DNA of 64,000 bases from Spirochaetia bacterium (GCA_965203905.1 CBDBDQ010000005.1:992001-1056000); one strand, 5' to 3'. Positions 42,382 to 60,903 are shown, counted from the first letter of the stretch. Notes: a model not told the origin generated them from the sequence alone. Numbers and translations are program-made.

Positions 42382-42424
42382 CGGCGCACGGACAGGTCAG
42401 GTAACCTCCGATGCGGGCGGAACC

Positions 42425-43813
42425 ATGAAGTTTCGATTCAAGAACCTCGGTCCGATAAAGCAGGCAGATCTCGAACTCGGCGACCTCACCATAATCGCCG
42501 GCCGCAACAACACCGGCAAGACCTACCTCGCATACGCCCTGTACGGCTTCCTCAAACGATGGAATTGGTCGGCCGGTTCGGTTTATGTCCTGCGCAATGA
42601 GGGCATCCGTCGCGTTGCCCGCTCATTGGCATCCGCCGCTGCCGCCAAGGGCCATGCGCGGAGTGTGGTCGATCGCCACACGTTTGATCGGCAGCGATCG
42701 GCCCTCGCAGAAACCGTGACTCCTCCGCTTGCCGGGTCCGAGTTGGCCAGTGTATTTGGTTCCCGTCCCGATGATTTCGAAAATGCTGTGGTCGAACTGA
42801 TTTCAGCGCTCCCGACGGATTTGCCGCCTTTGGAGGCTCACTCTTGGTTCGGTCATCGCTATAGGGTTGAGTACGAAAAGGACAGAATCGTCATTTCGGT
42901 CGATCCTTCCGACCGACAACGTGTCGAGATCGACAAGCATATCTCTGTTATTGAGGACGTCTATTTCAGATCCTTGTTCCCAGAGTTTGCGACCGATCCG
43001 TTTGTGCTATCATCCGAGCGCATTGGTATTTCCCTCTTCTATCGAGAGCTTGATTTTACAAAAAACAAACTCGTTGATCTAATAAAAAGGATGAGCAACG
43101 AGAGCAACCGGCGCCAATACGATCCGTTTCTCCTGATAGATAGGACGACCAGCCGGTATGCGTTGCCAGTGCAAGACAACATCGACTTTACCCGAAGTAT
43201 TCCCGATCTACGAGGCCACAAAAGCGACCTTTCCGACCACAGGATGCCCACGGATCTGAGACGGCTGACGGGTGCATATTACAGGATTTCCGATGACAGC
43301 ATTGCCCTCACCTCGACCGCGCGCGGATCGCGACGTTTCAGCATCCCGCTTTACTTGGCGTCTTCCTCGGCGAGGGGGCTGTCGGATCTCTACTTCTTTC
43401 TGGAGCACGTTGCTAAGCCCAATCACCTCTTGATCATCGATGAGCCGGAGAGTCATCTCGATACGCACAACCAGATTCTGATGGCCCGGTTGTTGGTCCG
43501 GTGCGTGCACGCGGGTATGAAGGTCCTGATCACTACCCACAGTGACTATCTCGTGAAGGAACTCAACAATCTGATCATGCTAAGCCGTAACTTCGACGGG
43601 AAGGAGGCCTTGCTCAAGAAGCTCAAGTACAGTCCTGACGATGCTCTCGACCCGAGTCAGATTCGTGCCTATGTCGCTAATAACGGCACCTTGACTGCTT
43701 GCAGTGTAGATCACTTCGGCATGGAGATGCCGAACTTCGATCGCACCATAGACGATATCAACGATGTGGCCAATAGGATTTCATCGCGGATCTTCGAAAC
43801 CAAGGGAACGTGA
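42425..43813 (+). CDS. ABC-type (AAA_15/AAA_21) ATPase
   Basis: GRNNTGKT, LASSS signature-like, IIDEPESHL, ITTHSDY. Visibly lower GC. Confidence 0.88.
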   Translation: MKFRFKNLGPIKQADLELGDLTIIAGRNNTGKTYLAYALYGFLKRWNWSAGSVYVLRNEGIRRVARSLASAAAAKGHARSVVDRHTFDRQRSALAETVTPPLAGSELASVFGSRPDDFENAVVELISALPTDLPPLEAHSWFGHRYRVEYEKDRIVISVDPSDRQRVEIDKHISVIEDVYFRSLFPEFATDPFVLSSERIGISLFYRELDFTKNKLVDLIKRMSNESNRRQYDPFLLIDRTTSRYALPVQDNIDFTRSIPDLRGHKSDLSDHRMPTDLRRLTGAYYRISDDSIALTSTARGSRRFSIPLYLASSSARGLSDLYFFLEHVAKPNHLLIIDEPESHLDTHNQILMARLLVRCVHAGMKVLITTHSDYLVKELNNLIMLSRNFDGKEALLKKLKYSPDDALDPSQIRAYVANNGTLTACSVDHFGMEMPNFDRTIDDINDVANRISSRIFETKGT

Positions 43814-44358
43814 GCCTCAGTCTGAACGATCAGCTGGAGACGGTCGTCCGCGCCGATCGATTGAGACGTGTCGAATCGAACCGCGTAACTCTCCGCGAAC
43901 GTGAAGCGAACATGTCGATCCATGTAACGGGCGTAAGAGGGCGCGTCACGACGATCCATATCGACAGGCTCGGCGGCCTCTCTGGGCTAAATCAGGGTGA
44001 TTGGAACCAAAGATGTGACTACCTAATGGTCATCGACAAGGAAGACACCTACCACGCCGCATTCATCGAGTTGAAGAAGACCCTTGATGAGGACCACAAA
44101 CCGCGGGAGCAACTGCGTCGATCTCTACCATTCCTGGAGTACCTGCGCTCGCTGTGCTGTATCCATTGCAAGCAAGCCGCTCCGGCAGAAGTCGAGGTCC
44201 GCTACGCGGTGATCGGTGAAAGGGGGCAACAGCGATTCGATAAGCAGGCTGTGAAGGCGAGACCGGGACATCCCGTTTGGACGAAGCCTCACCGTGGGAT
44301 CACGGTCTCAGCTTTCCTGGGGCCGACTGTTCCGCTCGCGGCCCTCGTCGGCACCTAA
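43810..44358 (+). CDS. Putative PD-(D/E)XK nuclease-fold partner of the ABC ATPase
   Basis: RCDYLMV..FIELKK..EQL motif. GTGA overlap with the ATPase. Confidence 0.6.
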   Translation: MSLSLNDQLETVVRADRLRRVESNRVTLREREANMSIHVTGVRGRVTTIHIDRLGGLSGLNQGDWNQRCDYLMVIDKEDTYHAAFIELKKTLDEDHKPREQLRRSLPFLEYLRSLCCIHCKQAAPAEVEVRYAVIGERGQQRFDKQAVKARPGHPVWTKPHRGITVSAFLGPTVPLAALVGT

Positions 44359-44361
44359 TGG

Positions 44362-45225
44362 TTGGATCGCGAAGTGCGTGGGTTGCCGCCTGAGCGCGAC
44401 CTGTTCTCCTACTACGAGAGCTATGACGAAGAGGGCCGGCTCGCACGTGCTTCGGGGGCGCTGGAATTCGCGCGGGTGCAGGAACTGATCGGGCGCTTCC
44501 TGGCTCCGCCGCCGCAGGTGGTGCTGGATGTCGGCGGCGGTCCCGGCAGGTACGCGTGCTGGCTCGCCGCGAGCGGCTACGAGGTCCATCTCCTCGATCC
44601 GGTTCCGCGTCACGTGGAGCAGGGGCGCGCGGCGTCCGCGGCGCAGCCGGAACATCCGCTGGCCAGCGTCACCGAGGGTGACGCCCGCGCCCTGCCATAC
44701 GAAGCGGAGAGCGCCGATGCCGTACTCCTCATGGGACCGCTCTACCACCTCCCCGAGCGGGCGCAGCGGCTGGCGGCGCTGGGCGAGGCGCACCGGGTAC
44801 TCAAGCCTCGCGGCATTCTGGTCGCCCAGGCGATCAACCGATTCGCATCGCTCCTCGATGGGATCATGCGCGGTTTCATCGACGACCCGGACTTCGTACC
44901 GATCATGCGCCGCGACCTGGAAGCGGGCCGGCACCGCGGGCTACCCGGCACCACCAGGTACTTCACCACGGCGTACTTCCACCGCCCGGACGAACTCAGC
45001 GCCGAGATTCGCGAGTCCGGTTTCCGCGAGCACGGTCTCTATCCGGTGGAGGGCGTCGGCCTGCTGGCCCCGGACCTCGACACGCGCATGGCCGATCCTG
45101 CCAAACGCACACAACTCCTGGACCTGATCCGCTCGGTGGAACGGGAACCGACATTGCTCGGTACCGCCCCTCACTTCGCCGTCATCGCCGCAAAGCAACT
45201 CCGAGTGAGCCCACCGACTGCGTGA
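44362..45225 (+). CDS. Class I SAM-dependent methyltransferase
   Basis: VLDVGGGPGRY, GDARAL, DAVLLMGPLYHL, VLKPRG. Confidence 0.88.
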   Translation: MDREVRGLPPERDLFSYYESYDEEGRLARASGALEFARVQELIGRFLAPPPQVVLDVGGGPGRYACWLAASGYEVHLLDPVPRHVEQGRAASAAQPEHPLASVTEGDARALPYEAESADAVLLMGPLYHLPERAQRLAALGEAHRVLKPRGILVAQAINRFASLLDGIMRGFIDDPDFVPIMRRDLEAGRHRGLPGTTRYFTTAYFHRPDELSAEIRESGFREHGLYPVEGVGLLAPDLDTRMADPAKRTQLLDLIRSVEREPTLLGTAPHFAVIAAKQLRVSPPTA

Positions 45226-45266
45226 TATGATGACAGGCGGGCCACATAGCGCGACAATGGGCCGCC

Positions 45267-45626
45267 GTGCGCACGTTCAACACCGCCGGCCCGGTGCGGG
45301 CGCACCGGCACTACCAGATCGCGCCGCTGTCGCGGATCGAGCGCGAGTACGCGCTGGGGCGAGGCAGGACCGACCTGCTGATCGTGTGGCCGCAGGGCGG
45401 GCGCGAACGGCGCTACGTGGTGGAGTGCAAGGTGCGGTACGGGGACCTGGAGCGGACCATCGCGGAAGGGATGGCGCAGACGCGGGCCTACGTGGACCGG
45501 TGCGTTGCCGAGGCCGGCCACCTGATCGTGTTCGACCGCTCGCCTGGGCTGACCTGGGAGCAGAAGATCTTCCGCCGCGAGCCGGCGCCCGGCATGGATG
45601 CCCCGGTCACGGTGTGGGGCATGTAA
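45267..45626 (+). pseudogene. Internally deleted AAA-like ATPase/PD-(D/E)XK gene (N-terminal 24 aa fused to C-terminal nuclease domain)
   Basis: MRTFNTAGPV N-terminus joined directly to EREYALGRGRTDL..VVECK..VTVWGM. Confidence 0.72.
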
Positions 45627-45695
45627 GCGTTGCCGATCCGAGGGTCGGGCAGTATGCTGGCGCGAGGAGGTGGGGCGAAACAGGCCACCTGGTTC

Positions 45696-46088
45696 ATGGG
45701 ACGCATCGTTACCTTGGTGATCGTGCAGAACGTGGCGGCAACGCGCACCGTCCGAATCGACGCGTTGGTCGATACGGGCGCCGGCTACCTCACCCTTCCG
45801 CTGGCTTGGAAGCAGCGGTTCGGTACATTTGCGCTGGAGGAAGAGGTTGCGCTGCAGACCGCAACGCAGCAGGTCGTAAGCGGCACCGTGTGCGGGCCGG
45901 CACTGATCCGTATCGAAGGGTTCAGGGCCATTCACGGCGAGGTTCTATTCGTCGAGATGGAGCCGGAAGAGGGCGAATACGAGCCATTGCTTGGGTACAT
46001 TTCCCTGGAGCAGTGCGGTGCGGCCGTTGACTTGGTGGGCCACCGCCTGCTGCCGGTACGGTACGTCGACGCCAAGGCAGCTCACTGA
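45696..46088 (+). CDS. Clan AA (retropepsin-like) aspartyl protease
   Basis: ALVDTGAGYL and PLLGYISLE motifs. Confidence 0.8.
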   Translation: MGRIVTLVIVQNVAATRTVRIDALVDTGAGYLTLPLAWKQRFGTFALEEEVALQTATQQVVSGTVCGPALIRIEGFRAIHGEVLFVEMEPEEGEYEPLLGYISLEQCGAAVDLVGHRLLPVRYVDAKAAH

Positions 46089-46121
46089 ACGGACCGCGCC
46101 GGCCCCCGATGCTCCTGAGCG

Positions 46122-46967
46122 CTACGACGCTCCCTCGTTCGCCTCGAGCAGCCGCAGGCTCCGTTCCAGTGTCCGCTCCAGCTCGTCACGGCTGAGTGCG
46201 GCGAGATCCGGTGCGAACGGCTCCAAGGAGACCGGCCCGTCGTAACCGAGGCGCCGCAGCCGGGCAATCTGCTCGCGGTTGCCGATCGCGTCGTCGTGAT
46301 CGACCAGTCCCCGGTCTTCGTCCCTGAGGTCGGGCTTCAGCCGGTCGCGGCGCACCCCGGAGGTGTGCACCATACCCACCAGCGAGATGTCCAGGTTGCG
46401 CTCGATCGCGCGTGCGTCGTCCAGCCCCAGGTAGTGGTGGAAGGTGTCGTACACGAGCCTGAAGTTCGCGCCCGATTCGGCGATCGCGCGTTGCGCGGTG
46501 AGCAGCGAGTCGAGTGACGACTCGGGAAACCCCAGCGGCTCGACCAGGCCGGTGACACCGCCGGTTGCGAATATCGGGCCCAGCGCACGCAACGACTGCA
46601 CGGTGTCGGAATAAGCCTGGGAGGCGGTGCGGCCGTCGGCGGGGTCGTTGTTGGGACACAGGACCACGGCGTCGCAGCCGATCGCGCGCGCCAGCGCGAT
46701 GAGCCGGGAGCTCTCCGCCGCCGCAGACTCGCGGTGCGCCGGTGAGTTGAACTTCTGCACCGCGTTGATGGTGGCGACCCTCACCCCGAGGCGCTCGGTG
46801 AGAGACCGAAACTGCTCCGCACCGAACTGGTCGATCTCTCCGTACCCCGGAAGATCGTTGCGCAACTCCACCTGCTCCAGGCCGACGTCGGCGGCCAACT
46901 GCAGAAACTCCGCGACCTCCATCCGCGGGCAGAGCATGCGATTGATCGCGAACTGCTTGCGACGCAT
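46122..46967 (-). CDS. Xylose isomerase-like TIM barrel (IolI-like inosose isomerase)
   Basis: VELRND, TINAVQKFN, EPLGF, DTFHH, HTSG, SLEPF. Confidence 0.8.
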   Translation of the reverse strand: MRRKQFAINRMLCPRMEVAEFLQLAADVGLEQVELRNDLPGYGEIDQFGAEQFRSLTERLGVRVATINAVQKFNSPAHRESAAAESSRLIALARAIGCDAVVLCPNNDPADGRTASQAYSDTVQSLRALGPIFATGGVTGLVEPLGFPESSLDSLLTAQRAIAESGANFRLVYDTFHHYLGLDDARAIERNLDISLVGMVHTSGVRRDRLKPDLRDEDRGLVDHDDAIGNREQIARLRRLGYDGPVSLEPFAPDLAALSRDELERTLERSLRLLEANEGAS

Positions 46968-47087
46968 TGTCGGCAAGGTAACCGCGGCATGCGCCCACAT
47001 CAATGGCCTCCCCACACGGCGGAGCGCACCGCAGTCCAGCGCTACGACGCTTTGCGACCCACCGCGTATTACGATTACCCTTGGCGT

Positions 47088-47360
47088 ATGACAATGTTGA
47101 GCTTTCGGGTGCAGGAAGCCGACGCACAAGCGGCCACCCGCTGGGCGGCCGCACTGGGCATCGACCGGTCGGACCTGTTGCGTGAGGCACTCCACCGCCA
47201 CCTGGTCAGCCTGGCAGCGTCGACCGAGGGAGACGCGTACGCCCGGTCGCCGCTCGATGCCGGCGAGCTTTCGCTGTCGGCAATCGCCGACTGGGGGCCG
47301 GCCGAGGAGTGGTCCGACTGGTCGGATGCCACGGACCACACAGAGCATGAGACGCGGTGA
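47088..47360 (+). CDS. mazE: RHH antitoxin (MazE-type)
   Basis: MLSFRV..GIDRSDLLREAL RHH, acidic Trp-rich tail, overlaps the toxin start. Confidence 0.78.
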   Translation: MTMLSFRVQEADAQAATRWAAALGIDRSDLLREALHRHLVSLAASTEGDAYARSPLDAGELSLSAIADWGPAEEWSDWSDATDHTEHETR

Positions 47361-47655
47361 AGTCTGGTTCGCGACCACGCCGGGCGGAGATCGGCCGGTG
47401 CTGGTGCTGACCCGCGACCCGGTCGCCACCCGGATCGGCGCCGTAGTGGTGGCCGCACTCACGCGCACCGAACGCGGACTGGTCTCCGAACTGAAGCTCT
47501 CGAATGCGCGGGACGGTGTGCCTACCGACTGCGTCGTGAGCTTCGACAACCTCCATACGGTTCCCCGCACGTCGCTTCGGCGCCGCATCACCCGGCTTGG
47601 CGCGCCGCGCATGGCGGAGGCATGCCGTACCCTCCGCGACGCTCTCGGCTGCTGA
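47347..47655 (+). CDS. mazF: PemK/MazF endoribonuclease toxin
   Basis: MRRGEVW..DRPVLVLTR..VVVAALT..CVVSFDNL. Confidence 0.9.
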   Translation: MRRGEVWFATTPGGDRPVLVLTRDPVATRIGAVVVAALTRTERGLVSELKLSNARDGVPTDCVVSFDNLHTVPRTSLRRRITRLGAPRMAEACRTLRDALGC

Positions 47656-47741
47656 ACAGGATGCCCCGCACGCGTGGACCTGAGCAGATCCAGGCGCGGT
47701 TGTCGCGCAAGCCGCGCCGCCAAGTTCCCAAGGTCCACGTG

Positions 47742-47903
47742 GTGATGACAGGCGCACCACATAGCGCGACAATGGCTCCCGTGCGCACGCTCAACACCGC
47801 CGGGCCGGTGCGCGCGGACCGGCCCTACCGGATCGTGCCATTCCCGGCGATGCGGCCGGCGCCGACCGGCACGGGCGCCCCGGTCACGGGGTGGGACAGG
47901 TAG
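47742..47903 (+). repeat. Second, more deleted copy of the 45227-45626 mini-element (upstream region + 5' end + 3' end)
   Basis: Shares ATGACAGGCG..CCACATAGCGCGACAATGG..GTGCGCACG.TCAACACCGCCGG and the CCCCGGTCACGG.GTGGG 3' end. Its stop abuts the SNF2 ATG. Confidence 0.85.
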
Positions 47904-50891
47904 ATGGCGCCCGTTCGTCATCCGATCCATCGGCGTCTCGAGGCCGAGGATCTCGTGCGACTGCGCCGGTCATCCGAGCGGCGGCGTTACGCGGCATCGC
48001 AGCGGCGGGGGCGCATCGATCCCAATCCGCACCAGATCGACGCGGTGATGTTCGCCCTGCGGCGGATACCCGAGGGTGGCTGCATCCTGGCCGACGAGGT
48101 GGGGCTGGGCAAGACGATCGAGGCCGGACTGGTGGTGGCCCAGGTCATGGCCGAAGGCGCCGAGCGGATCCTCATCGTCGTTCCCAAACCGCTCCTGGGA
48201 CAGTGGCAGGATGAGCTCTACACCCTGTTCGGCATCTCCGCCCGTGAGGCTGCCGACAGCGAAAGCGATGTCACGGCACCCGGCGTGTTCCTGGCCGGGC
48301 GCGAGTACGCGGGCAGCGCCACCGGTTCGGGACGCCTGGCGGCTGCGCCGCCGTTCGACCTGTGTGTCATCGACGAGGCACACGAGATGTTCGCCGGCAT
48401 CTACCAGCGCTTCGACCGCTACGGCACGTACGACGAAACCAGCGCCGCGGCGCAGACCGCGCACCGGGTGCGCAAGCTGATCGGCCCGGCGCCGGTCCTG
48501 CTCCTGACGGCCACGCCGATTCAGAATTCGCTCGCCGAGTTGTGGGGCTTGCTGCACTACGTCGAGCCGACCGGGACGCTGGTGGGCTCGCTGCCGATCT
48601 TCAAGGCGCTGTTCTGTGAGGGGCAGGATGGCCGGCGGCTGGTTCCCGCGCAGGCCCCCGAGTTGCGGCGCCGGCTCGGCGCAGTGGTGCAGCGGACGCT
48701 GCGCCGCCAGGCGCAGGAGTTCCTGGACAAGCCATTCGTGGGACGCCGCGCCCAACTCTACGAATACGCCATGAGCACCGAGGAGAAGCAGCTCTACGAC
48801 GACGTGACCAACTACCTCCTGTCCCCGAGCCTGAATGCGTTTCAGGGCCGTTCCCGACAACTGCTGCTCATCGGGTTCCACCGCCTCATGGCGTCCTCCA
48901 CGGCGGCGCTGGCGAACAGTCTGGAACGGGTCGCCGAGCGGCTGCGGAGGATGCGCCGCGGTGCGCCCGCAAGCGAGGATCCCCGGGACACCGAACCGCT
49001 CATCACCGATCTCGATGACGACGAGCTGCCGCCCGCCCTGCCGCACATCGAGGATGATCCGGCCGGCGCGCGAGTCGCGGCGGCGCCGGCGCTTGACGCC
49101 GAACTGGCGCAGGTCGAGGACTTCGTGCGCCGGGCCCGTTCCCTGCCGCACGACAGCAAGGCGCACAGCCTGGTCAAGGTGGTGCGCTCCATCGGCGACC
49201 GGTGCGACGGCAACGCCAAGCTGGTGGTGTTCACGGAATCGCTGACCACGCAGGGGTATCTGCGCGACCTGCTGACACGGCACGCGGGACTTCAGGAGGG
49301 CGAAATCACCCTGTTCCGGGGACAGAACGACTCGCCGCGCGCACGGCAGGCGCTGCGGCGCTGGCAGGAAGAGGTCGGCAGGCACCTCCCGGGGCCTCGT
49401 GCTCCGAGCCCGGAGGTCGCCGTGCGGCTGGCGCTGGTGCACGAGTTCAAGACCCGTGCGCGCGTGTTCATCGCCACCGAAGCGGGTGCCAAGGGGCTCA
49501 ACCTGCAGTTCTGCGACACCATCGTCAACTACGATCTGCCGTGGAACCCGCAGCGCATCGAGCAGCGGATCGGCCGTTGCCACCGCTACGGTCAGACGCG
49601 CGACGTGACGGTCGTCAATTTCCTGGCCAGGGACAACGAGACCCAGCGCTTGACGCTGGAGATACTGGCGCAGAAGCTGGACCTGTTCGGCGACGTGCTG
49701 GACATGTCCGATGCGGTGCTGCACCAGGCGCGTTCGCAACGTTCCGAGGAGCTGTCCACGGCCCTCGGCCCGGACTTCGAGCAGCAGCTCAACCGAATCT
49801 GGGAACGTGCCCGTTCGATCGACGAGGTGGAGGAGGAGCTGCGCCGCCTGCGCGAGACCATGGAGGAGCGGCGCCGGGAACTGGAGCGGATCCGGGAGCA
49901 CACGACCGGCCTCATCGAAGCTCGTTTCGACGACTCGGTGCAGCAGGTGTTCCGGCGCATCGCCGAGGAGTTGCCCGCCACGCTGGCCGACCTGGATGCG
50001 GACCTGGAGCGGGTCGTCATCGACTACCTGCGCGCCAACGGCGTAGACCACGCCAGCGAGGCTCAAAACGGCCGGCGGCTGATCCGGATTCCCCCTTCCG
50101 AGCGCCTACCCGGTACGCTGGCGGCGGGGCTCTCCGTCAGCGCGGGTCAGGCGCAGGCGCTGGCAGAGGTCGATGCCCTGCACGTCGCCCATCCGCTGGT
50201 GCGGGCGGCGATCGACGATGCTCGACGCAGGGGAGCGGGAACCTTCTCGGTGCGATTCCTGCTCACGACGCAGGCGCCGGACGAGCTGAAGCAACGTCGG
50301 GGGTCACGCGGACGCCTGGCGCTGAGCCGCATGTCCTATCGCGGGTTCGAGCGCGAGGATCGCCTGATAGCGACCGCCGTGTTCGAAGATTCCGCGGTCC
50401 TGCGGCCGGCCGAAGCGGCGCTGGAGCTGCTCGCCCTGCCGTGCCAGGATCTGCCGGCTCCGCTTGCCGACCTCTCCGTGACCGCCGCCGACCTGGACGA
50501 AGTGGTGGACGAAGCACTGTTCTTCGACCAGGCGCGGGCCGCCGACGCCGAAGCGGAGGCGTTCTCGCGGGCTCTGGACCAGCTCGACCAGTACGTCGAA
50601 GACCGCCTGCTGGTGCTGCGGCGCGGGCAGCGGGAAATCTCGGATCAGCTCAAGCAGGCCGAGGAACGGCGCGACGCGGCGCTGGGCGCCGATGCGCGCG
50701 GCCGCGCCGAAGAGCGCATTCGGCGCCTGGAACGTGAGCTGAGCGTCACCGAAGACCGGATCGAACGGCTGGCGGCCCGCGATGACGGCGACTACGAGCG
50801 TTGGCGGTCGCAGCTTCACCGCCGCCGCTACACGCCGCCGCAGGCTGCACGGCTGTTCGACCTGGAGTTCGTGATCGGCGAAACAGAGTGA
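47904..50891 (+). CDS. SNF2/SWI2 family helicase-like ATPase with coiled-coil C-terminus
   Basis: PHQIDA, LADEVGLGKTIEAG, IDEAH, LTATPIQN, VFTES, GLNLQ..NYDLPWNPQRIEQRIGRCHR. Confidence 0.93.
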   Translation: MAPVRHPIHRRLEAEDLVRLRRSSERRRYAASQRRGRIDPNPHQIDAVMFALRRIPEGGCILADEVGLGKTIEAGLVVAQVMAEGAERILIVVPKPLLGQWQDELYTLFGISAREAADSESDVTAPGVFLAGREYAGSATGSGRLAAAPPFDLCVIDEAHEMFAGIYQRFDRYGTYDETSAAAQTAHRVRKLIGPAPVLLLTATPIQNSLAELWGLLHYVEPTGTLVGSLPIFKALFCEGQDGRRLVPAQAPELRRRLGAVVQRTLRRQAQEFLDKPFVGRRAQLYEYAMSTEEKQLYDDVTNYLLSPSLNAFQGRSRQLLLIGFHRLMASSTAALANSLERVAERLRRMRRGAPASEDPRDTEPLITDLDDDELPPALPHIEDDPAGARVAAAPALDAELAQVEDFVRRARSLPHDSKAHSLVKVVRSIGDRCDGNAKLVVFTESLTTQGYLRDLLTRHAGLQEGEITLFRGQNDSPRARQALRRWQEEVGRHLPGPRAPSPEVAVRLALVHEFKTRARVFIATEAGAKGLNLQFCDTIVNYDLPWNPQRIEQRIGRCHRYGQTRDVTVVNFLARDNETQRLTLEILAQKLDLFGDVLDMSDAVLHQARSQRSEELSTALGPDFEQQLNRIWERARSIDEVEEELRRLRETMEERRRELERIREHTTGLIEARFDDSVQQVFRRIAEELPATLADLDADLERVVIDYLRANGVDHASEAQNGRRLIRIPPSERLPGTLAAGLSVSAGQAQALAEVDALHVAHPLVRAAIDDARRRGAGTFSVRFLLTTQAPDELKQRRGSRGRLALSRMSYRGFEREDRLIATAVFEDSAVLRPAEAALELLALPCQDLPAPLADLSVTAADLDEVVDEALFFDQARAADAEAEAFSRALDQLDQYVEDRLLVLRRGQREISDQLKQAEERRDAALGADARGRAEERIRRLERELSVTEDRIERLAARDDGDYERWRSQLHRRRYTPPQAARLFDLEFVIGETE

Positions 50892-52018
50892 ACGTGGCAC
50901 TCAAGATATTGCACACCGCCGACTGGCACCTCGGCCTGCGGTTCCCCGCGCTGACGCCCGAGCAGGAGAGCCGCTTGACGCGGGCGCGCCTGGAAGTGGT
51001 GGGACGGATTCTCGACCTTGCCGAGAGCCGGCGCGTAGATGCGGTGCTCTGCGCCGGCGACCTGTTCGACGAGCCGCGGCCCGACGAGGAGTGGTGGCAG
51101 GGATTGCTGTCCGAGTTTCAGCGCCGGTCGTGGACGCGACCGGTCATCCTGCTGCCGGGCAACCACGACCCATTGACGCCGAATTCGATCTATGCGGCAG
51201 GCAATCGGTTCCGGCGCGGACTACCCGGTTACGTGCACGTGGTCGATTCCGATGAGTTCGAGTTGGCGCTCGGATCCGGCGCGGTGGTGTACGCGAGACC
51301 GTGCCGGTCGCGTGCCGGCCAGACCGGGCTGGCGGCCAGCCTCCCGGCGCGCGCGGCTGGCGATGAGCGGATTCGCATCGGGCTCATTCACGGCCAGACC
51401 TTCGATCTCCCGGATCATCAGACCACGTTCCCGATAGAACGAAATGCCGCGCTGGAGCGTGGACTGGACTACCTCGCGATCGGCGACACGCACGGATTCC
51501 GCGACGTGCAGCCGGATGCCAGGGTACCGACCATCTATCCGGGAGCACCCGAGGCCACGAAGTTCGGGGAGCACGGTTCCGGCCAGGTCGCCCTGGTCTT
51601 CTTCCCGCGCGACCGGGCGCGGCGGGCACTGGTCGAGGGCGAGGCGGTCGCGGCCTGGTCGTGGCGGGAGGAGACCTGCCGTTCTCTCGCGGAGCTGCAG
51701 CGGCTGCGGGACGAGCACCTGCGCAAGACCGTGCTGAGATTGACGCTGGACGCCCGACTGCCGCTCCACGAATACGACGAGGCGGCACGCATACTGACGG
51801 AACTGAAGGGGTCGCTGTCGTCCCACCCCAAGGTCGGGGTGCTGCTCGCCGATCGCAGTCGGCTGCGCCTCGACACCACCGATTCGTCGCGGTTCACCGA
51901 GGGCTGGCCGGAAGTGCTGCGCTCCGTCGTCCGGCGGCTGAAGGAGCACGAAGCGGACGACCCGGAGAAGGCGGAGCGCGCCCTCCATCACCTCTACGAG
52001 CTGGTCCGAGGGCAATAG
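50888..52018 (+). CDS. Mre11/SbcD-like metallophosphoesterase nuclease
   Basis: HTADWHLG, AGDLFD, PGNHD, IHG, YLAIGDTHG, YPGAPE..FGE. GTGA overlap with SNF2. Confidence 0.9.
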   Translation: MNVALKILHTADWHLGLRFPALTPEQESRLTRARLEVVGRILDLAESRRVDAVLCAGDLFDEPRPDEEWWQGLLSEFQRRSWTRPVILLPGNHDPLTPNSIYAAGNRFRRGLPGYVHVVDSDEFELALGSGAVVYARPCRSRAGQTGLAASLPARAAGDERIRIGLIHGQTFDLPDHQTTFPIERNAALERGLDYLAIGDTHGFRDVQPDARVPTIYPGAPEATKFGEHGSGQVALVFFPRDRARRALVEGEAVAAWSWREETCRSLAELQRLRDEHLRKTVLRLTLDARLPLHEYDEAARILTELKGSLSSHPKVGVLLADRSRLRLDTTDSSRFTEGWPEVLRSVVRRLKEHEADDPEKAERALHHLYELVRGQ

Positions 52019-52020
52019 CG

Positions 52021-55000
52021 ATGTGGATCAGGCAGGTCTCGGTACGCCACTTCGCCGGTATCCGCTCAGCCGAAATCACCCTCGCACACGGTCTCAACGT
52101 CCTGCACGGACCGAACGAGATCGGCAAGTCGACGCTCGTGGAGGCCATTCGGGCGGCCCTGCTGCTGCAGCACGGTGCATCCGCCGCCCGCGACTTCGAC
52201 GACTGGCACACCGATCAGCCGGCGCAGGTGACACTGACCCTCGAGACCGAGCCACAGCGCATCTGGCGCGTGCGCAAGAGCTTCGGCAAGGGCGTGGATG
52301 GATCGAGCTACCTGGACTTCTCGCGCGATGGAGCGACCTTCACTCAGGAGGCCAAGGGACGTGACGTGGACGGCCGGATTCGAGAGCTGCTGCGCTGGGG
52401 CCTGCCGGCACCAGGCGGCAAGGGGCGCTCCAAGGGGTTCTCCGAGTCGTTCCTGGCGACCACCCTGCTGGCCGATCAGCGCGCCGTCGCCGACCTGCTG
52501 GAGCGCAGTCTCGACGACGACCCCGACGAATCGGGGAAAGGTCGGCTGAGCGACGCGCTGCAGGCGCTCGCCCAAGACCCGGTGTTCCGCAAGGTCGTCG
52601 CCCGCACCCAGGAGCGCGTGGACGAGGCGTTCACCGGCACCGGGCAACGCAGCCGACGTCGAGGATCGCCATGGATGAACCTGCGAGACCAGCGTCAGGC
52701 CGCCGACCGGCGCCGAACCGAGATGCGCCGCCGCGTCACCGAGAGCGACGATGCCCGCGCCCGCGTCGACCGCTGCCGCGAGCAGCTCGACGAAGCCCGC
52801 AGCCGGCTCGACGCTGCGCGGCGCCAGCGGCAACGGATCGACGCTGCCTGGGAACGGCAGCGGGCGCGCGACGCGGTCGGCGCCGAGATCGCCAAGGCAA
52901 CGCGGGAGCGAGACCGGATTCAGGGCCTCCACGACGAACGGGACCAGGCCAGGCGGGAACTGGACGCCGCCGAGCAAGCGGTCGGCGCGGCCGACGCGAG
53001 CATGGCCCAGGCGGCAGAGACGGAGCGGCGCGCACGAGAGTGCCTCGACACCGCTCGCCGGCACCTGGCCGAAGCGGAGAGTGGCGCCGCCCGGCAGCAG
53101 CGTACGATCCGCAGGCAGGAGATCGAGAACCTCCGGCTCAGGAACAGGAATCGGCGAGCCGAAGTGGAGCGGGGCAAGGCGGAAGCGGCCGGTGTGCGCG
53201 ACCTGGAGGCCGCGACCCAGCGGTTGCGGGCGGACCTGGAGGCCAGGTCGCGGAAGCTTGCCGCGACCAGATCGCGCGCCCGGAAGGCTCATGAGCAGGA
53301 CCGGAAGGCCGCCGCCGAGATCAGTCGAATCGCGGGCCAGGTCCTGGGGCTGAAGCTGCTGAGCGGCCGCGAGCAGCTCGCGCGGCTGCACGAGTCGGCG
53401 CGCCAGGCCAGGGAGTTGCAGTCACGGGCGCACGCAAAGTCGCAGCGTGCCAAGGCATTGCGCACCTCGGTAAAGGGTCGCTCCTTGCCCGACTCCGAAC
53501 AGTTGGAAACCCTGCGCGCGCTGCAGACCGATCTTCGGGTCGCGGAACAGGCCTTGCAGGTGGGAGTCTCCGTCGAGATCACACCGAGCCGTCCGCTGTC
53601 CGTTACCACCCGCGCCGACGGCGGACCACCCCGGACCGCCGACCTGACTCGGCCCGAGTCGATGGAAGCGGCCGCACACCTGCGCCTGGAGCTGGAGGGG
53701 GTCGGGCAGATCGAGATTCGGGGCGGGAGCCGCGACTCCCGTGAGCGAGCCTCGCGGCTACGAGCGGAGTGGGCCGCCGCGACCTCCGGATTGTTCCAAC
53801 GGCTCCAGGTCGACAACCTGGAACAGCTCATCGCGCAGTGTCACGCCGGAGAGCGGGAGCTGGCCGCGGCCGACGCCCTGGTGCGCGAGGCCGATCAGGA
53901 ACACCAGCAAGCCGCGGCTCTGATCCAGGATGACGAGTTCATCGCCGAGCGCGGGCGCGAGTTGCAACGGCTCGAACGGCAGGTCAGGGATGATCTCGGC
54001 GAACACGACCTCGAAGAGTTCGTTCGCCGGTGCGCGTCCGGTGACGGGGCCGATACGGCTTCGCTGGAACAGCGGCTCGCCTCCCTGCGCGCCGCTCGTG
54101 AGCGCGGAACGGCGCGCATCGGCGAGCTCCAACAGCAGGTTTCGCGGGCGGAGGGAAGCATCGAGTCCGGGCAGCAGGAGCTGGCAACGCGGGAAGCCGC
54201 GTTCGCGGAGCGCCGCGAGGCTCTCGCCGATCCCTGGGAGTCGGTGCTGGCGCGCGCGGAAGCGGAACTCGATACCCTCGGAAGTGAGGACCGGGGCCTG
54301 GCAAAGGAGCTCGAGGCGCTGGAGACCGGGGCCAGCAATGAAGTGGAACAGGCACGAACCAGCGTCCGACAGGGCGAACAGCGGCTTGCGGTCGCCAGGT
54401 CGCGGAGCTCGAACTGCAGCGAGACGGTCGAATCGGCGCGCGAGAAACGCGACCGGCTGGCGGGTACTGTCGATGAGCGCGCCGCTGCGGTGCGGCGGGA
54501 AGATCTCGCAGCGGCCCGCGCGCACCTCCAGGCGCTGCGCGCCAGCCTCGCGCAACTGCCGGTACCGGAGATGGAAGTCACCGAGCAGGAGCGCGAGCAG
54601 GCGGTGGATGCGGTACGGCGGCTCACCGAGGAGTGCGGCGGCGCGGACGCCGAGCTGCAGAAGGCGGAAGGCGCGCTGCAACAGGTCGGTGGTCACACCG
54701 TCCAGGAGCAACTGGCGCAGGCGAACGAGGCGGTGACGGCGGTCAACCGGCGCGAGGGCGAGATCGAGGTCGAGTATGGCGCCTGGAAGCTGCTGCTCGA
54801 CACGCTGCGCGAGGCCGAGGCGGAGGATGCCGTGCACCTCGGGAAGGCGCTCGTCGAGCCGGTATCGCGGCGCGTCTCCGAACTGACCGGCGGTTCGTAC
54901 GGCGAGGTCACCATCGCCCCGACGCTGTCGACGCAATACATCGAGGCGGCCGGCAGTGAACGCGATCTCTCGCGGCTGTCGGTCGGAACCCGGGATCAGC

Positions 55001-55239
55001 TTGCCACCGTGCTGCGTCTCACCATCGCAGAGAAGCTGGGCAGCACCGTCGTCCTGGACGACCAACTCGTGCAGAGCGATGCATCACGCATGCGCTCGCT
55101 GTACGAGCTCATGCAGCAGTGCGCGAAGGAGTTTCAGATTCTCGTGCTCACCTGCCACCCCGAACACTATCGCCCCCCCGATGGCCGCCCGCTGCACGCG
55201 ATCGACCTCACCGAGCACATCGAGCGCACCCAACCGTAA
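52021..55239 (+). CDS. SMC/Rad50/SbcC-like (YhaN-type) ABC ATPase with long coiled coil
   Basis: GPNEIGKST Walker A, ~800-aa coiled-coil-rich region with a central beta-rich insert, LSVGT signature, VVLDD Walker B, LTCH. Confidence 0.9.
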   Translation: MWIRQVSVRHFAGIRSAEITLAHGLNVLHGPNEIGKSTLVEAIRAALLLQHGASAARDFDDWHTDQPAQVTLTLETEPQRIWRVRKSFGKGVDGSSYLDFSRDGATFTQEAKGRDVDGRIRELLRWGLPAPGGKGRSKGFSESFLATTLLADQRAVADLLERSLDDDPDESGKGRLSDALQALAQDPVFRKVVARTQERVDEAFTGTGQRSRRRGSPWMNLRDQRQAADRRRTEMRRRVTESDDARARVDRCREQLDEARSRLDAARRQRQRIDAAWERQRARDAVGAEIAKATRERDRIQGLHDERDQARRELDAAEQAVGAADASMAQAAETERRARECLDTARRHLAEAESGAARQQRTIRRQEIENLRLRNRNRRAEVERGKAEAAGVRDLEAATQRLRADLEARSRKLAATRSRARKAHEQDRKAAAEISRIAGQVLGLKLLSGREQLARLHESARQARELQSRAHAKSQRAKALRTSVKGRSLPDSEQLETLRALQTDLRVAEQALQVGVSVEITPSRPLSVTTRADGGPPRTADLTRPESMEAAAHLRLELEGVGQIEIRGGSRDSRERASRLRAEWAAATSGLFQRLQVDNLEQLIAQCHAGERELAAADALVREADQEHQQAAALIQDDEFIAERGRELQRLERQVRDDLGEHDLEEFVRRCASGDGADTASLEQRLASLRAARERGTARIGELQQQVSRAEGSIESGQQELATREAAFAERREALADPWESVLARAEAELDTLGSEDRGLAKELEALETGASNEVEQARTSVRQGEQRLAVARSRSSNCSETVESAREKRDRLAGTVDERAAAVRREDLAAARAHLQALRASLAQLPVPEMEVTEQEREQAVDAVRRLTEECGGADAELQKAEGALQQVGGHTVQEQLAQANEAVTAVNRREGEIEVEYGAWKLLLDTLREAEAEDAVHLGKALVEPVSRRVSELTGGSYGEVTIAPTLSTQYIEAAGSERDLSRLSVGTRDQLATVLRLTIAEKLGSTVVLDDQLVQSDASRMRSLYELMQQCAKEFQILVLTCHPEHYRPPDGRPLHAIDLTEHIERTQP

Positions 55240-55379
55240 CGCCTCAGCCACTCCCCCAAGCGAAACGCGGCCGGTCTTGGCTGCCACACACGCGATTCGC
55301 TTGACGCCATTTAGGCTCTCAGCGCCATTCCTTCATCGTGGTCATTGTGCTCCGAACTTGACCGCTTACGCGCTCTCTC

Positions 55380-55567
55380 ATGATGATGCGGCCATGATCG
55401 CCGTCCACCGCCCCGCCCCCGGAGGCCAGATTCGCGACGACGACGGCACCGCTCAAGCCCTGATCGAGCTTGGATACACTGTCATCCGCATTCACCACAC
55501 CGACGATTGGGAAGCGATATTCGGCCGCCATACCGATGTCTTCGGAGCGCAGGACGATGTCACGTGA
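55380..55567 (+). pseudogene. C-terminal remnant resembling the DUF559-like tail of DUF1998 DEAD/DEAH helicases
   Basis: ALIELGYTVIRIHHTDDWEAIFGRHTDVFG. Confidence 0.5.
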
Positions 55568-56609
55568 CGAATACCACCGCGTGTTGCTGGAACGCCTGCA
55601 CGGACAACTCCGATGGGAAAATGAACCGGCCCCGGACTGGACGGTCGACGATCTTGATCTGAGCGAGATCACCCGCACCCTTGATGAAGCAATTCGCCGG
55701 CGTCGAGCGGAAGATCCCGGAACACGGGAACCAACGGAGCTGCTGCGCGGATTCGGCTTGATCCACGACGGCCGGCTGCTCCGCGCCGCGGTCGTGTTGT
55801 TCGGCAGATCCGAGCGTGTGGGCGCGGAGTACCCGCAGTGCATGCTGCGGGTAGCGAGATTTCGCGGTATCGCCCGCACCGACGAGTTTCTGGACAACCG
55901 GCAGTTTCACGGCAATGCGTTCACCCTCCTGGGCAGCGCAGAACGCTTCTTCCGGGAGAGCCTGCCCATCGCCGGTCGCATCGAGCCAGACCTATTCGAA
56001 CGAGTGGATGATCCGCTCTATCCGCCGCCGGCTCTGCGTGAGGCGCTCGCCAATGCCATCTGTCACCGGGACTACTCCATCGGCGGGGGATCGGTGGCCG
56101 CGGCGATCTACGACGACCGCCTCGAAGTCACTTCCTCGGGTCGGCTGCACTTCGGGCTCACACCCGAAGCGCTGTTCGAGCCCCATGAGTCGTTGCCCTG
56201 GAACCCGCTGATCGCACGGGTCTTCTACCTCCGCGGGATCATCGAGCAGTGGGGCCGGGGAACCATCAAGATGCGAGAACTGACGACCAGCGCCGGATTG
56301 CCGGCACCGGAGATCGAGGACGCGGGCGGATGCGTCACGGTGCGCTTCAGACCGGGAACCTACGTGCGGAGTCGTGTCGAGCGGGAGGTAACCGATCGCC
56401 AGCAGGCCATTCTCGCCCTGCTCGCGGGAGTGTCCGACGGCCTTGCCTTACGCGAGATCATCCCCCAATTGGGCGATTCTGTTGTGTGGTGGCAGGTACG
56501 AGATGATTTGCGGATCTTGCGAACACTCGGCTTGGCGATATGCAAAGGCCGCGGCCGTGGTGCGCGCTGGCTGCGCCGGCAGGTTCCATCAGCGGAACTC
56601 ATGGAATGA
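55557..56609 (+). CDS. RecG-C-like ATP-binding regulator with wHTH, N-terminal AlbA domain missing (possible pseudogene)
   Basis: ALREALANAICHRDYS, IYDDRLEV, NPLIARVF, EQWGRG, GRGRGARW wHTH. Confidence 0.8.
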   Translation: MSRDEYHRVLLERLHGQLRWENEPAPDWTVDDLDLSEITRTLDEAIRRRRAEDPGTREPTELLRGFGLIHDGRLLRAAVVLFGRSERVGAEYPQCMLRVARFRGIARTDEFLDNRQFHGNAFTLLGSAERFFRESLPIAGRIEPDLFERVDDPLYPPPALREALANAICHRDYSIGGGSVAAAIYDDRLEVTSSGRLHFGLTPEALFEPHESLPWNPLIARVFYLRGIIEQWGRGTIKMRELTTSAGLPAPEIEDAGGCVTVRFRPGTYVRSRVEREVTDRQQAILALLAGVSDGLALREIIPQLGDSVVWWQVRDDLRILRTLGLAICKGRGRGARWLRRQVPSAELME

Positions 56610-56832
56610 GACTTCTAATTACTTCCCATTACTTCTCATTTCTTTGCAATGAGTCTATAATTGTATTCCAGAGAATAACCTATCCCATTACTTCTCATTG
56701 CTTCCAATTCTGTCCTATTCCGAGGAATAAGACGTCTCATTCTCAACAATAGAACTCTATTGGCGAGCAATTATCGTTGATATAATGATTTAAGCCACTT
56801 CGTCTTATTCTGTTCTATTCTGTCTTATTCCC
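56605..56832. repeat. AT-rich array of 10-bp-period degenerate repeats and palindromes
   Basis: ACTTCTAATT-ACTTCCCATT-ACTTCTCATT; CGTCTTATTC-TGTTCTATTC-TGTCTTATTC; palindrome GAATAAGAC|GTCTCATTC. Confidence 0.75.
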
Positions 56833-57078
56833 AAACTCACAAGGAAAACCCCATCACGGTAACACCGATTCCGATACCTGAGAATAGCGCACCGATACCG
56901 TTTACGAGCAACGGCACATCCGGCACAGCCGCACCGCCCGACGGGTTCACACACCGACGGTCCGCTCCTCCGCGTCGCCGGCACCGGCCCGGCCACGCGG
57001 TACACGGTGTCAGAGCCGCACGAGGTCGGGCCGACACTTGGAAACGTGAGCGCACAAAGTCTCTCTGAATCCGGCACC

Positions 57079-57950
57079 CTATTCCGTGAGCAACACGATA
57101 CGACCCTTGCCACGGCGATCGATGTAATCGACGATCAGCTCCGTGACGGCTGCCAAGTCGACGAACCCGCCAATGCTTTGGATACGGTTCGACCGCAGCT
57201 CCGTTGCGGCCCACTTCAACGTCTTTTTGAGGTCCGTTGCTCGGGTGCAAACCGGGTCTAGGAAACTAGCGCTGTAGCGCCGGCGGCGAAGCAGGTACGC
57301 AATACACAGACTGGCGTGTCGGTAGATGTACTTGGCCTCGTAATGACGCAGTTGTTTCTTCATCACGTCGTGGGCAAGGTCAAGGAGAATACCGCAGGTC
57401 TCATCTTTCATCCGCTCGGTAGCCGCCGCCCGGTATTGGAGAATCCTGGCGAGGGCACGAAGCCAGTCATTGGGACCTTTGAATCCGGTACTCTGAAGGT
57501 GCACAGCCATGACGTCGGCGAATCGGGCAATCTGCTCGGGATCGCGAAGGCAGTTTGCGTACGCATTGAGATGGTGTCGCTTGATAGCGTGGGGTACCGA
57601 GAGCAAGTCCCGTAGCCGCGTCGCAAGCGATTTTTAAGCCGAGCTGAAGTAACCAACGACCCGATAAACTTGCTCATAAATATCTCTGGAAGTCGAGTCG
57701 TCTAACCATGCTACGAGCCGCTCTTCGAACGCGTCAAGCAGTGATCTGTCATTTCCAGCGCCAAACAGTGTCCGTGCCTCATCAAGCACTCCTTCGCTAC
57801 CGACTGCGGTTGCATGATCTGGTGGAGTACGAGCCGCTAAGTTCTCATCCTTCTGCCTCAACAATTCCCGAATCGTCCCGAGATGGTCGTCAACACGCAT
57901 TGCTGTTGGTAGCCTACAATTGGTCAAAAAAACCTGGATTTCGTATTTCA
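57079..57950 (-). pseudogene. 3' remnant of a large unknown helical protein, interrupted by an in-frame TAA at 57634
   Basis: ORFs 57634..58569 (3' part) and 57079..57606 are in the same frame. Lower GC; no 5' end. Confidence 0.55.
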
Positions 57951-57959
57951 CTGCGCGCC

Positions 57960-58320
57960 AACAGCGGCCGCAGGAGAAGAACAGATAGGGCAGCCCGGCG
58001 CGGCGGAACGGCAGGTGGTCGCTGACGTCGCCGATGTAGTGGTTGAGGGCGGCGATCAACGGCAGCCGCCGCGGCAGCCGGCAGGCCGCCATCGCCGCCG
58101 GCAACCCCGGGTGCGACTCCGCCCCGGTCATGGACAGCAGGTTGCGGATGCGCGGCAGCCGGCGCTGCTTGCCGCCCAGGGGGAAGCGCGCCTCGTGGCC
58201 GGTCAGGTCCCGGATCAGCCCGCAGGCGACGCAGCGTTCGTCCATCCACCGCTCGTGAAAGTGCACGCTGTCCCAGGCGTCGAACTGCGCCGCGCTGGCG
58301 TAGCCCAGCGCCAGCGCCGC
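57960..58320 (-). pseudogene. Internal fragment of an M28-family peptidase
   Basis: YIGDVSDHLPFRRAGLPYLFFSCGR motif. High GC, unlike its flanks. Confidence 0.6.
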
Positions 58321-58473
58321 TTGCCGCAGCTGACCAGTTTGCCGCGTACCGTGATGCGCCCTTGGTGAAGCTGACCTCCACGCGGATCTGCGTTTCGTCC
58401 CATCCGGCCCAGCGTAGGGTGAGGGTGATAAACTGGTGCAGATGTCGCGTTGGGCGAGGTCTCTCTTGTTCAT
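58320..58473 (-). pseudogene. hsdR: 5' fragment of type I restriction subunit HsdR (EcoAI/EcoEI-like), frameshifted
   Basis: MNKRDLAQRDICT../AGWDETQIRVEVSFTKGRITVRGKLVS across frames. Confidence 0.75.
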
Positions 58474-59323
58474 CGTTTCAGCGGCGGCCCGGCGCTTGGC
58501 CGCGCCGGCGCTCCACGGCGGGCGGCGCCGGCGGACGCTACGGACGCTTTCGTATGGGACCACCTGCACCCCGCTTCAGTATACTACTCCCGTGCCTCGA
58601 CCGTGCGGCGGGCGACCAGTGGCCGTCGCCGCAGCAATCCAGGATACGAAGCGTTCAACAAGGAACGAGCGGCCCGTGCGCTGAACGACGCGACAGGCCA
58701 ACGGAGCGGCCGATTACCTGCGCGGGGTGCTTATAGATTCAGTCAGAGAGCCAGATCGCGTCATCGGCGCCGAAGTCATTCCGTGCTGTCGCGATGATCG
58801 CGAACCCGGATACCGGCTGCTTCGCGGAGCGCGCGTGGCAGTCCTTGGAACAGGAACTCGACGTTGCCAGCAAGTACGTCGAGGAGTTTGGCGAAACCGC
58901 ATATGCGTCGATGGACGCAATATCCGACGTTGCTACGGATCCACCGAGGGCAACCGGCGGCTACAAACTTCATTCGCAGGGAGCGGGACGCCCTACAACG
59001 GTTGACCGGTGTCTGGCTACTAGCGAGCTTCAGCACGATCGTCAGCAGAAGGCTCTCGCAGCCTACTTGGCGAATCCTTCGGCCGATGTCCATCGGAACA
59101 TACTCGAGCCGACTCGTGACGACGTGGGCGGTCGAAAGTTTGCCGCGAACGTGGCGGCCGCCGTCGGACACATCTCGATGCCAGCAACCATCACCACGCC
59201 CGCGAGCCGGCTCCCGTATGAAGCTGCTCCTCCAACTATATGTCGATCCGTATCTCCGATCAATTCCTTATGACGAAACCCCCGAACAAGCGCCTTGGCC
59301 GCACAGCACGGCACGTCGCTGCT

Positions 59324-59584
59324 TTACTCTGCCGCTCGGGGCAGAGCACCTCCGGCTCTGCCGAAAATGACCTCATCCGAGTCTTCGTCAAGATGCTTGC
59401 TGGTAACGTGCATTTGTCGACGGTAGGGTGGAGCCAACGTGTACCCTCGTGGGGAGAGTCCTTGCTTGCGAAGCGCTTGCAGAAGGTCTCTGGCCTCGCG
59501 CACTTTCTCAAGGTCGACCTTCGGATTGTTTCGCATCACCTTGTCGATATCGACCCCGCCGTCACCGGTAGGCGAGTGGAACAT
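59324..59584 (-). CDS. Small hypothetical protein overlapping the protease gene end
   Basis: AGGAGG-containing RBS before ATG 59584. Overlaps the protease 3' end by 23 nt. Confidence 0.5.
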   Translation of the reverse strand: MFHSPTGDGGVDIDKVMRNNPKVDLEKVREARDLLQALRKQGLSPRGYTLAPPYRRQMHVTSKHLDEDSDEVIFGRAGGALPRAAE

Positions 59585-60497: not shown

Positions 60498-60679
60498 CGC
60501 AGCTGAGCGAACTTCGTTGTAATTGTAATGCATCTGGATCCGGGCAGCATCCAATTGGAGTACCGCCGGCGGAACGCCAACCGCTGTCCGTGAGCAGGCC
60601 GGTAGCGATGACGGCTGGAAGTTGGACCCGGAGCCATGTTGCAGAGCTTGGGGTTGGCAGGGTGGCATGTCAAGCTGGG

Positions 60680-60891: not shown

Positions 60892-60903
60892 TGGAGTCAC
60901 GGC

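Follow-up and report, generated by a model that had tools for sequence, protein, structure and literature searches.

What is the function of a three-gene operon in which a predicted SNF2-family translocase is joined to an Mre11/SbcD-like nuclease and a Rad50-like ATPase? We addressed this question for positions 47,904 to 55,239 of a 64,000-nucleotide stretch of DNA from a Spirochaetia bacterium (GCA_965203905.1, CBDBDQ010000005.1:992001-1056000), the whole of which is referred to here as the window. The original prediction, made from the sequence alone, had proposed that this trio of genes is a system directed against mobile genetic elements (MGEs). Judging from comparisons of sequences and profiles, the trio is predicted to encode an Mre11-Rad50/SbcEF-type complex in which an SNF2 partner is obligatory and the apex of the coiled coil is a beta domain, a combination present in no catalogue searched. 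We place about even confidence in the reading that we favour, namely that the trio is an accessory, methylase-free cassette that specifies a DNA-end-sensing nuclease machine, most likely one that acts against MGEs.

As had been predicted, the trio consists of three large, intact and co-directional open reading frames (ORFs), all on the plus strand. The first (47904-50891) encodes a predicted SNF2-family double-stranded DNA (dsDNA) translocase of 995 amino acids (the SNF2 protein); the second (50888-52018, with a GTG start codon) encodes an Mre11/SbcD-like binuclear metallophosphoesterase of 376 amino acids (the nuclease subunit); and the third (52021-55239) encodes a Rad50/SbcC/SbcE-like coiled-coil ABC ATPase of 1072 amino acids that has no zinc hook. 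When the junctions were read base by base, both the GTGA overlap and the 2-nucleotide gap of the original prediction were recovered. In particular, the GTG at 50888 shares bases with the TGA at 50889-50891, giving an overlap of four nucleotides between the SNF2 and nuclease genes, and two bases, 'cg', separate the TAG of the nuclease gene (52016-52018) from the ATG of the ATPase gene at 52021. (Note that a second in-frame GTG, at 50894, is an alternative start for the nuclease gene.) The three genes are thus arranged as a unit whose members are predicted to be translationally coupled. A weak sigma-70-like promoter match is located at 47745-47773 on the plus strand, 130 nucleotides upstream of the SNF2 start codon; it reads ATGACA-17-GACAAT and agrees with the consensus at 9 of 12 positions, a matter of consensus likeness alone. 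We also note that ATGGCTCCCGTGCGC, at 47773-47790, resembles the start of the SNF2 gene, ATGGCGCCCGTTCGT, at 47904-47921, and may represent a short duplication of its 5' end.

The catalytic motifs of the encoded proteins, which had been described as intact, are present and prove to be invariant in alignments of the orthologues. The nuclease matches the Pfam family Metallophos (8.7e-14), and the profile of its family matches the Mre11/SbcD of T. maritima among Protein Data Bank (PDB) sequences (6e-17); its score against the NCBIfam sbcd model TIGR00619 is 67.2 bits, under the cut-off of 77.65. It contains the motifs HTADWH, GDLFD and GNHD, and all 23 of the sequences aligned share residues D12, H14, D58, N92, H93, H168, D200 and H202. 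Motif V reads GDTH, as opposed to GHIH in the T. maritima protein, such that the invariant D200 takes the place of the first histidine. None of 5027 PADLOC models matches the nuclease.

The ATPase has N-terminal Pfam matches to AAA_23, AAA_27 and SMC_N, and among PDB sequences it matches the head of P. furiosus Rad50 (1e-6); against the NCBIfam Rad50 model PRK03918 it scores 37.5 bits, compared to a cut-off of 700. The match to AAA_27 (the YhaN-type family) is weak, at 22.3 bits with a cut-off of 22, and covers residues 1-76 only. Nine of 14 ATPases match AAA_27 at E <= 0.01, although generic ABC N-terminal models score equally well or higher, and the Atlas look-alikes of the protein are AAA_23/AAA_27 ATPases of 860-1080 amino acids. 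The head motifs read GPNEIGKST, LSVGTRDQL and VVLDDQ. Invariant in 14 of 14 sequences are G30, P31, N32, G35, K36 and S37 of Walker A, the Q-loop residue Q153, the D-loop residue D1020, residues S987, G989 and Q993 of the signature motif, and D1013-D1014 of Walker B, which is therefore DD rather than DE. The H-loop histidine is replaced by arginine in 5 of the 14. In one review, LmuB of the Lamassu system is described as a slow, sensor-like ATPase with a Walker B change from glutamate to glutamine (PMC10586767). By analogy with LmuB, the DD form of Walker B and the variable H-loop suggest that the ATPase of the trio may likewise be slow and sensor-like.

Two further claims, that the ATPase has a central beta-rich insert and that it lacks the CXXC zinc hook of Rad50, were both borne out. 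No cysteine is conserved in the central region across the 14 sequences, the sole invariant cysteine being C1045 in the H-loop region. The conserved middle segment of the protein opens with an invariant proline, P490, and an AlphaFold2 model of residues 462-655, which has a predicted local distance difference test (pLDDT) score of 93.5, contains six strands at residues 516-567 (positions 53566-53721 of the window, plus strand) between long helices (H31-50 and H110-134 in the numbering of the modelled segment). In this model a small beta domain occupies the predicted apex of the coiled coil, the position of the CxxC hook in Rad50 and SbcC. When the apex domain was compared to the PDB by Foldseek, nothing was found at E <= 0.001; a wide search in VIA with the apex model returned helical hairpins only (Z <= 9) and is uninformative with respect to the beta unit or the novelty of its fold. 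A profile of the apex domain picks out 35 ATPase ORFs that belong to the trio clade and a single distant one (L234). In four trio loci (L040, L207, L209 and L211) the beta domain is replaced by a strongly hydrophobic hairpin that resembles two transmembrane helices, and such a mid-point hairpin is also found in three distant gene pairs (L031, L045 and L061). These sequences suggest that the ATPases with a hydrophobic apex may be membrane-anchored variants of the family. (In one Acidobacteriota genome, at about 9390-9450 of locus L037, the ATPase gene is split over two frames, through either a frameshift or an assembly error.)

To which known complexes are the nuclease and the ATPase related? 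Their best matches among solved structures are to SbcCD/Mre11-Rad50 proteins, with which they share phosphoesterase motifs I-V, the ABC head motifs and a Rad50-type head split by a long coiled coil, of which the helices that flank the apex are confidently modelled. In contrast to SbcCD/Mre11-Rad50, the trio has no zinc hook, has DD in Walker B and GDTH rather than GHxH in motif V, falls under the NCBIfam sbcd and Rad50 cut-offs, and has an obligatory SNF2 partner. Canonical SbcCD was rejected as an assignment, given the lack of a hook and the scores under cut-offs. A closer likeness is to SbcE (YhaN) of B. subtilis. According to PMC2811018, SbcE lacks a CxxC motif; its central domain is unique, includes a conserved proline and is hydrophobic and insoluble in its first half; its gene lies directly downstream of the SbcD-like yhaO gene (SbcF); and it acts with SbcF in double-strand-break repair and competence. 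In both cases an SbcD-like gene lies directly upstream of the gene for a hook-less, long coiled-coil ABC ATPase with a conserved central proline (P490 here), the central domains having been compared by description; the match to the YhaN-type family AAA_27 is the weak one given above. The B. subtilis pair differs in that it is without an SNF2 partner and in that its central domain is described as hydrophobic and insoluble, whereas that of the ATPase studied here is a soluble-looking beta domain (although four trio loci are hydrophobic at this position). It also differs in being a conserved Gram-positive repair and competence factor, whereas the genes described here form a patchily distributed island set.

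We then come to the partner that sets the trio apart. The SNF2 protein matches Pfam SNF2-rel_dom (8e-23) and Helicase_C (7.5e-15) and contains the motifs PHQ...LADEVGLGKTIEAG, DEAHE and QRIGRCHRYGQ, its helicase motifs being invariant in 14 of 14 orthologues; K70 belongs to its Walker A motif. Among PADLOC models, DrmD (PDLC02619) is the top match at 394.7 bits, followed by BrxHI/II at 198.6, HmaA at 147 and DpdE at 125, and the DrmD matches span both the helicase core and the C-terminal region. The original prediction had assigned the protein to an SNF2 subtype that usually accompanies restriction-modification or DISARM-type loci, and DISARM, BREX, Hma and Dpd do indeed draw on this clade. 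Among PDB sequences, the top match is E. coli RapA (3e-25), although against the NCBIfam RapA model NF003426 the protein scores 145.6 bits compared to a cut-off of 576. A model of the last 396 residues (pLDDT 82) was compared to solved structures with Foldseek, and 4 of 4 matches at E <= 0.001 are RapA (E 4e-6 to 2e-5), so that RapA is both the top sequence match of the SNF2 protein and the sole significant fold match of its C-terminal region. The helicase core begins at approximately residue 36, leaving only some 35 residues before it, and the protein differs from RapA in having no N-terminal Tudor-like domains. In the SNF2 protein, a helicase core that resembles those of RapA and DrmD is thus followed by a C-terminal region like that of RapA, and the N-terminal Tudor domain is missing. 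A RapA-like layout is also described for BrxHII (PMC12839542).

Because DrmD models give the top PADLOC and NCBIfam matches of the SNF2 protein, over both core and C-terminal region, we entertained the idea that the trio is a variant or remnant of a named system, whether DISARM with DrmD or another SNF2-based system, or else one named in literature outside the coverage of our searches. We regard this as improbable. The scores against the NCBIfam DrmD models lie far under the cut-offs (391.7 bits compared to 950 for DrmD_b, NF038318, and 227.9 compared to 610 for NF038317). Moreover, although DrmD, BrxHII, HmaA and DpdE are the closest profile matches of the SNF2 protein, its partners are a nuclease-ATPase pair and not DrmABC plus a methylase; DrmA, DrmB, DrmC and a methylase are not among the conserved neighbours of the trio, and nothing in the window matches DUF1998. 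DISARM was rejected on the basis of these DrmD equivalog cut-offs, the lack of a PF09369 match in the window and the absence of DrmA/B/C and DrmMI from 10 sets of flanks. Lamassu and Wadjet, in which LmuB and JetC, respectively, are coiled-coil ABC ATPases beside a nuclease (and Walker B is degenerate in LmuB, as it is here), were rejected as well: matches to LmuB are weak (29.9 bits), and the neighbours of the ATPase gene are those for the SNF2 protein and the SbcD-like nuclease. The trio has no LmuA, LmuC or JetABD, its effector would be an Mre11-type nuclease, presumably bound in the manner of Rad50, and it has an SNF2 motor. Consistent with the claim that no named system contains this trio, none in PADLOC v2 or NCBIfam matches it, and searches of full-text literature, whose coverage did not extend to the ABC-ATPase survey of Krishnan et al. 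2020, gave no description of an SNF2-SbcD-SbcC operon.

If the SNF2 protein is a genuine partner of the nuclease and the ATPase, the three genes should be found together elsewhere. We searched 60 relatives, 185,579 species genomes and metagenome contigs for orthologues of the nuclease. Homologues at E <= 1e-10 number more than 2000. Among the relatives, four of the 10 other members of the genus and one of 13 genomes of the sister genus have an orthologue (64-88% identity), and the top match elsewhere in the order is at 9.5e-25. The order SNF2-SbcD-ATPase is kept in 5/5 orthologous loci of the relatives, in 11/11 of the species genomes and in 36/37 of the metagenome contigs, compared to a same-strand SNF2 gene in 0/13, 0/4 and 0/40 distant loci, respectively. 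(For the species genomes, the 15 loci L033-L047, of 80 kept, were inspected for SNF2, the remaining 65 being short N-terminal matches to generic SbcD. For the metagenomes, there were 40 orthologous loci with at least 44% identity, of which 37 have at least 250 nucleotides of upstream DNA and 3 have fewer than 50; the 40 distant loci have at most 39% identity.) The lone exception among the 37 is L230, in which there is no SNF2 match at 1e-6. These findings answer both the expectation that neighbourhoods of homologues would keep the three-gene order and the doubt as to whether SNF2 is co-conserved with the pair.

The 11 species-genome copies are 48-65% identical to the nuclease of the source genome, and all come from metagenome-assembled genomes. 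The labels of these assemblies are Gammaproteobacteria, Acidobacteriota (several orders), Myxococcota, Rokubacteria and Chthoniobacterales (Verrucomicrobiota), which represent about five phyla; two of the 11 loci end at contig edges. Across 31 complete loci the pairwise identities of the SNF2 protein and of the nuclease are correlated (r = 0.96), which argues that the three genes share one history without any sign of partner swapping, with the caveat that common descent by itself yields such an r. At the 10 species-genome loci that have flanking DNA, neither a fourth gene nor a methyltransferase is repeatedly found beside the trio. Judged by its sequences, the trio is a strictly co-conserved, horizontally mobile unit, in which an SbcE-SbcF-type hook-less pair is predicted to have gained a RapA/DrmD-type SNF2 motor once and then to have spread as a fixed unit. 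(As a hint as to habitat only, the DNA runs that contain between 1/5 and 1/3 of the words sampled from 47600-55300 of the window include sponge and coral metagenomes.)

A unit that moves between lineages could serve the elements that carry it, for example in recombination or end processing for the establishment or replication of conjugative elements or islands. The genes that flank the trio differ in every lineage, and in L039 the trio lies directly beside genes for a TrwC relaxase and a TrwB/TraG coupling protein, both of which would fit such a role. We nevertheless give this explanation little credence. Searches of 72,556 plasmid records (best match 33% identity), 50,697 phage records, where there are distant relatives only, and the IMG/VR viral contigs (best match 30% identity) gave no orthologue, and conjugation genes occur within 8 kilobases (kb) of the trio at only 1 of the 10 species-genome loci with flanks. 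Note that the plasmid relatives in Bradyrhizobium and Rhizobium are two-gene pairs, annotated 'DNA repair exonuclease + AAA family ATPase', and that no SNF2 annotation appears there; for one plasmid relative, H1, an 'ATP-dependent helicase', identified by annotation only, is listed approximately 3 kb upstream.

Where is the trio inserted in the genome from which the window was taken? Within the genus there is an insertion hotspot between the oad operon (represented at the flank by genes for a carboxyltransferase, OAD gamma, OAD beta and a 161-amino-acid protein) and nadB-nadC-nadA. This site is empty in two sister genomes (G009 and G010), contains only a PD-T4-4-like pair and a methyltransferase gene in a third (G007), and contains both the PD-T4-4-like pair and the trio in the source genome, G001, G004 and G005. 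The island in the window extends from about 42.0 to 60.9 kb (approximately 42035-60900), some 19 kb, and includes patches of low G+C content (0.56-0.57, compared to approximately 0.69 for the window). As for a tRNA gene at the island boundary, the window has none. The PD-T4-4-like two-gene system is located at 42425-44358, in a patch with a G+C content of 0.56; PD-T4-4_A matches PDLC04033 over its full length (337 bits), and its partner of 182 amino acids has only weak matches to PDC-M47B/PD-T4-4_B. Directly upstream of the trio are an ORF for a MazE-like ribbon-helix-helix antitoxin (46989-47360, plus strand) and a gene for a MazF/PemK toxin (domain at 47353-47643, region to about 47655, plus strand; PF02452, 2e-12), in agreement with the claim that mazEF adjoins the trio. 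The trio is therefore an accessory cassette in a variable hotspot beside known defence genes. Nor is the pair of SbcD- and SbcC-like genes the vertically inherited SbcCD of this lineage, a possibility that the original prediction had raised against itself: it is patchy within the genus, the hotspot is empty in two sister genomes, and the identity to copies in other phyla is 48-65%.

Other features of the island that had been described fared unevenly. Remnants of AlbA-type regulators had been proposed, and there are two HATPase_c_4 remnants in the window (42013-42381 and 55470-56609); neither ORF contains an AlbA_2 domain at E <= 0.001, and both are probably truncated regulators. We were unable to find the hsdR pseudogene or the DUF1998-like tail, there being no match in the window at E <= 0.01 in whole-genome searches with TIGR00348 (hsdR) and PF09369 (DUF1998/MZB), although heavily decayed copies could escape detection. 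A gene or gene fragment for a xylose-isomerase-like TIM barrel (AP_endonuc_2) is found just upstream of the trio both here (46122-46970) and in the sister genus (L019, 5247-6164). The region 56600-60900 is low in G+C (0.57-0.63) and contains several ORFs without a Pfam or PADLOC match, and a gene for an SDH-type ClpP-like protease is located at 59562-60701.

In other genomes and contigs the neighbours of the trio include Avs2 (L199), Gabija GajA and GajB (L219), PDC-S02 (L218) and HmaA with HmaB (L042). A PDC-S37/Hhe-like gene lies beside the trio in L206, L213 and L039 (in L039 together with the conjugation genes). The same kind of gene, for a giant helicase with an MTES_1575 restriction endonuclease domain, is also found beside the two-gene relatives L242, L243 and L265, and in L243, L206 and L213 it is directly upstream on the same strand.

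Several findings weigh against a role for the trio in defence. First, PADLOC neighbours are present at 5 of 19 trio loci in metagenomes as compared to 10 of 17 loci of SNF2-less relatives (E <= 1e-20); of the latter, approximately four to five are strong, and L266 and L269 were left out of this control set. Since the control flanks are at least as rich, the association with defence genes belongs to the wider family and is not specific to the trio (the two sets having been compared without a random baseline). The expected enrichment of the trio itself in defence islands was thus not seen, and the data are suggestive of a defence-island association of the wider family. Second, 5 of the 10 species-genome loci with flanks have no PADLOC-like neighbour, and two of the trio loci (L033 and L040) are among metabolic genes. 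Third, the change of the first histidine of motif V to aspartate may bear on the predicted nuclease activity. Fourth, SbcE-SbcF of B. subtilis, the nearest relative to have been characterised, functions in repair and competence (PMC2811018). Fifth, the trio is adjoined by Ku in L041. Finally, the genome contains no other SbcD-family gene, so the pair could serve repair too.

The last three of these findings fit an alternative that we regard as rather unlikely, yet as the most probable of those considered here. The trio could be an accessory module for double-strand-break repair or recombination, in which an SbcE-SbcF-type end processor has recruited an SNF2 remodeller. The task of the remodeller would be to free broken or stalled DNA of proteins or RNA polymerase, much as SNF2 enzymes of eukaryotes assist resection by Mre11-Rad50. 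The layout shared with B. subtilis SbcE (no CxxC, a unique central domain with a conserved proline, a gene directly downstream of yhaO; PMC2811018) fits this explanation, as do the AAA_27 matches of 9 of 14 ATPases, the AAA_27 ATPases among the Atlas look-alikes, and the C-terminal fold of the SNF2 protein, which matches only RapA, a housekeeping remodeller. Less readily accounted for are the patchy distribution within one genus, with a hotspot that is empty in sister genomes, the copies of 48-65% identity in unrelated phyla, the presence of PD-T4-4, mazEF, Avs2, Gabija and Hma among the neighbours, and the membership of the SNF2 protein in the clade that defence systems have recruited.

How might the trio act if, as we favour, it is directed against MGEs? 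The products of the three genes would most likely assemble into one machine, as suggested by the coupling of the genes. Its core would be an ATP-gated nuclease of the Mre11/Rad50 type, composed of an SbcD-like dimer and the hook-less, SbcE-like ATPase, whose arms may be joined or capped by the small beta domain, and this core would be coupled to the RapA/DrmD-like SNF2 motor tracking along dsDNA. In the manner of SbcCD, the ATPase would clamp DNA ends, hairpins or blocked ends, which are its presumed substrates (the end-sensing model is summarised in PMC10586767); Lamassu, too, is reported to sense DNA ends (PMC12663957). The SNF2 motor could play any of three roles, in that it may deliver the nuclease to such structures, feed DNA in, or strip proteins that protect the ends. 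The target of this presumably protective activity would be incoming linear or replicating phage or plasmid DNA, and a circular chromosome, which has no free ends, would explain why a modification enzyme is not needed.

The Mre11-Rad50/SbcCD complex is the universal machine for processing DNA ends, and the SNF2 motor is a recurrent component of defence systems that are poorly understood (DISARM, BREX, Hma and Dpd). We propose, with somewhat less than even confidence, that the trio represents a new family of modification-independent systems against MGEs, in which a hook-less nuclease of the Mre11-Rad50 kind comes hard-wired to an SNF2 motor of the RapA/DrmD type. The apex, a beta domain in most copies and a membrane-spanning hairpin in some, would position or gate the complex at sites where the ends of foreign DNA arise. 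If this is true, the trio would be the first case in which the Mre11-Rad50 end-processing machine itself is the direct basis of a defence system. That all of the species-genome orthologues come from assemblies of uncultured organisms may explain why the trio is lacking from catalogues based on isolates. As a methylase-free cassette of an SNF2 protein and a nuclease, it would offer a simple model for the role of SNF2 motors in bacterial immunity, as well as for how Rad50-like sensors tell foreign DNA from self. A role in repair would instead make the trio a bacterial equivalent of end resection that is assisted by a remodeller.

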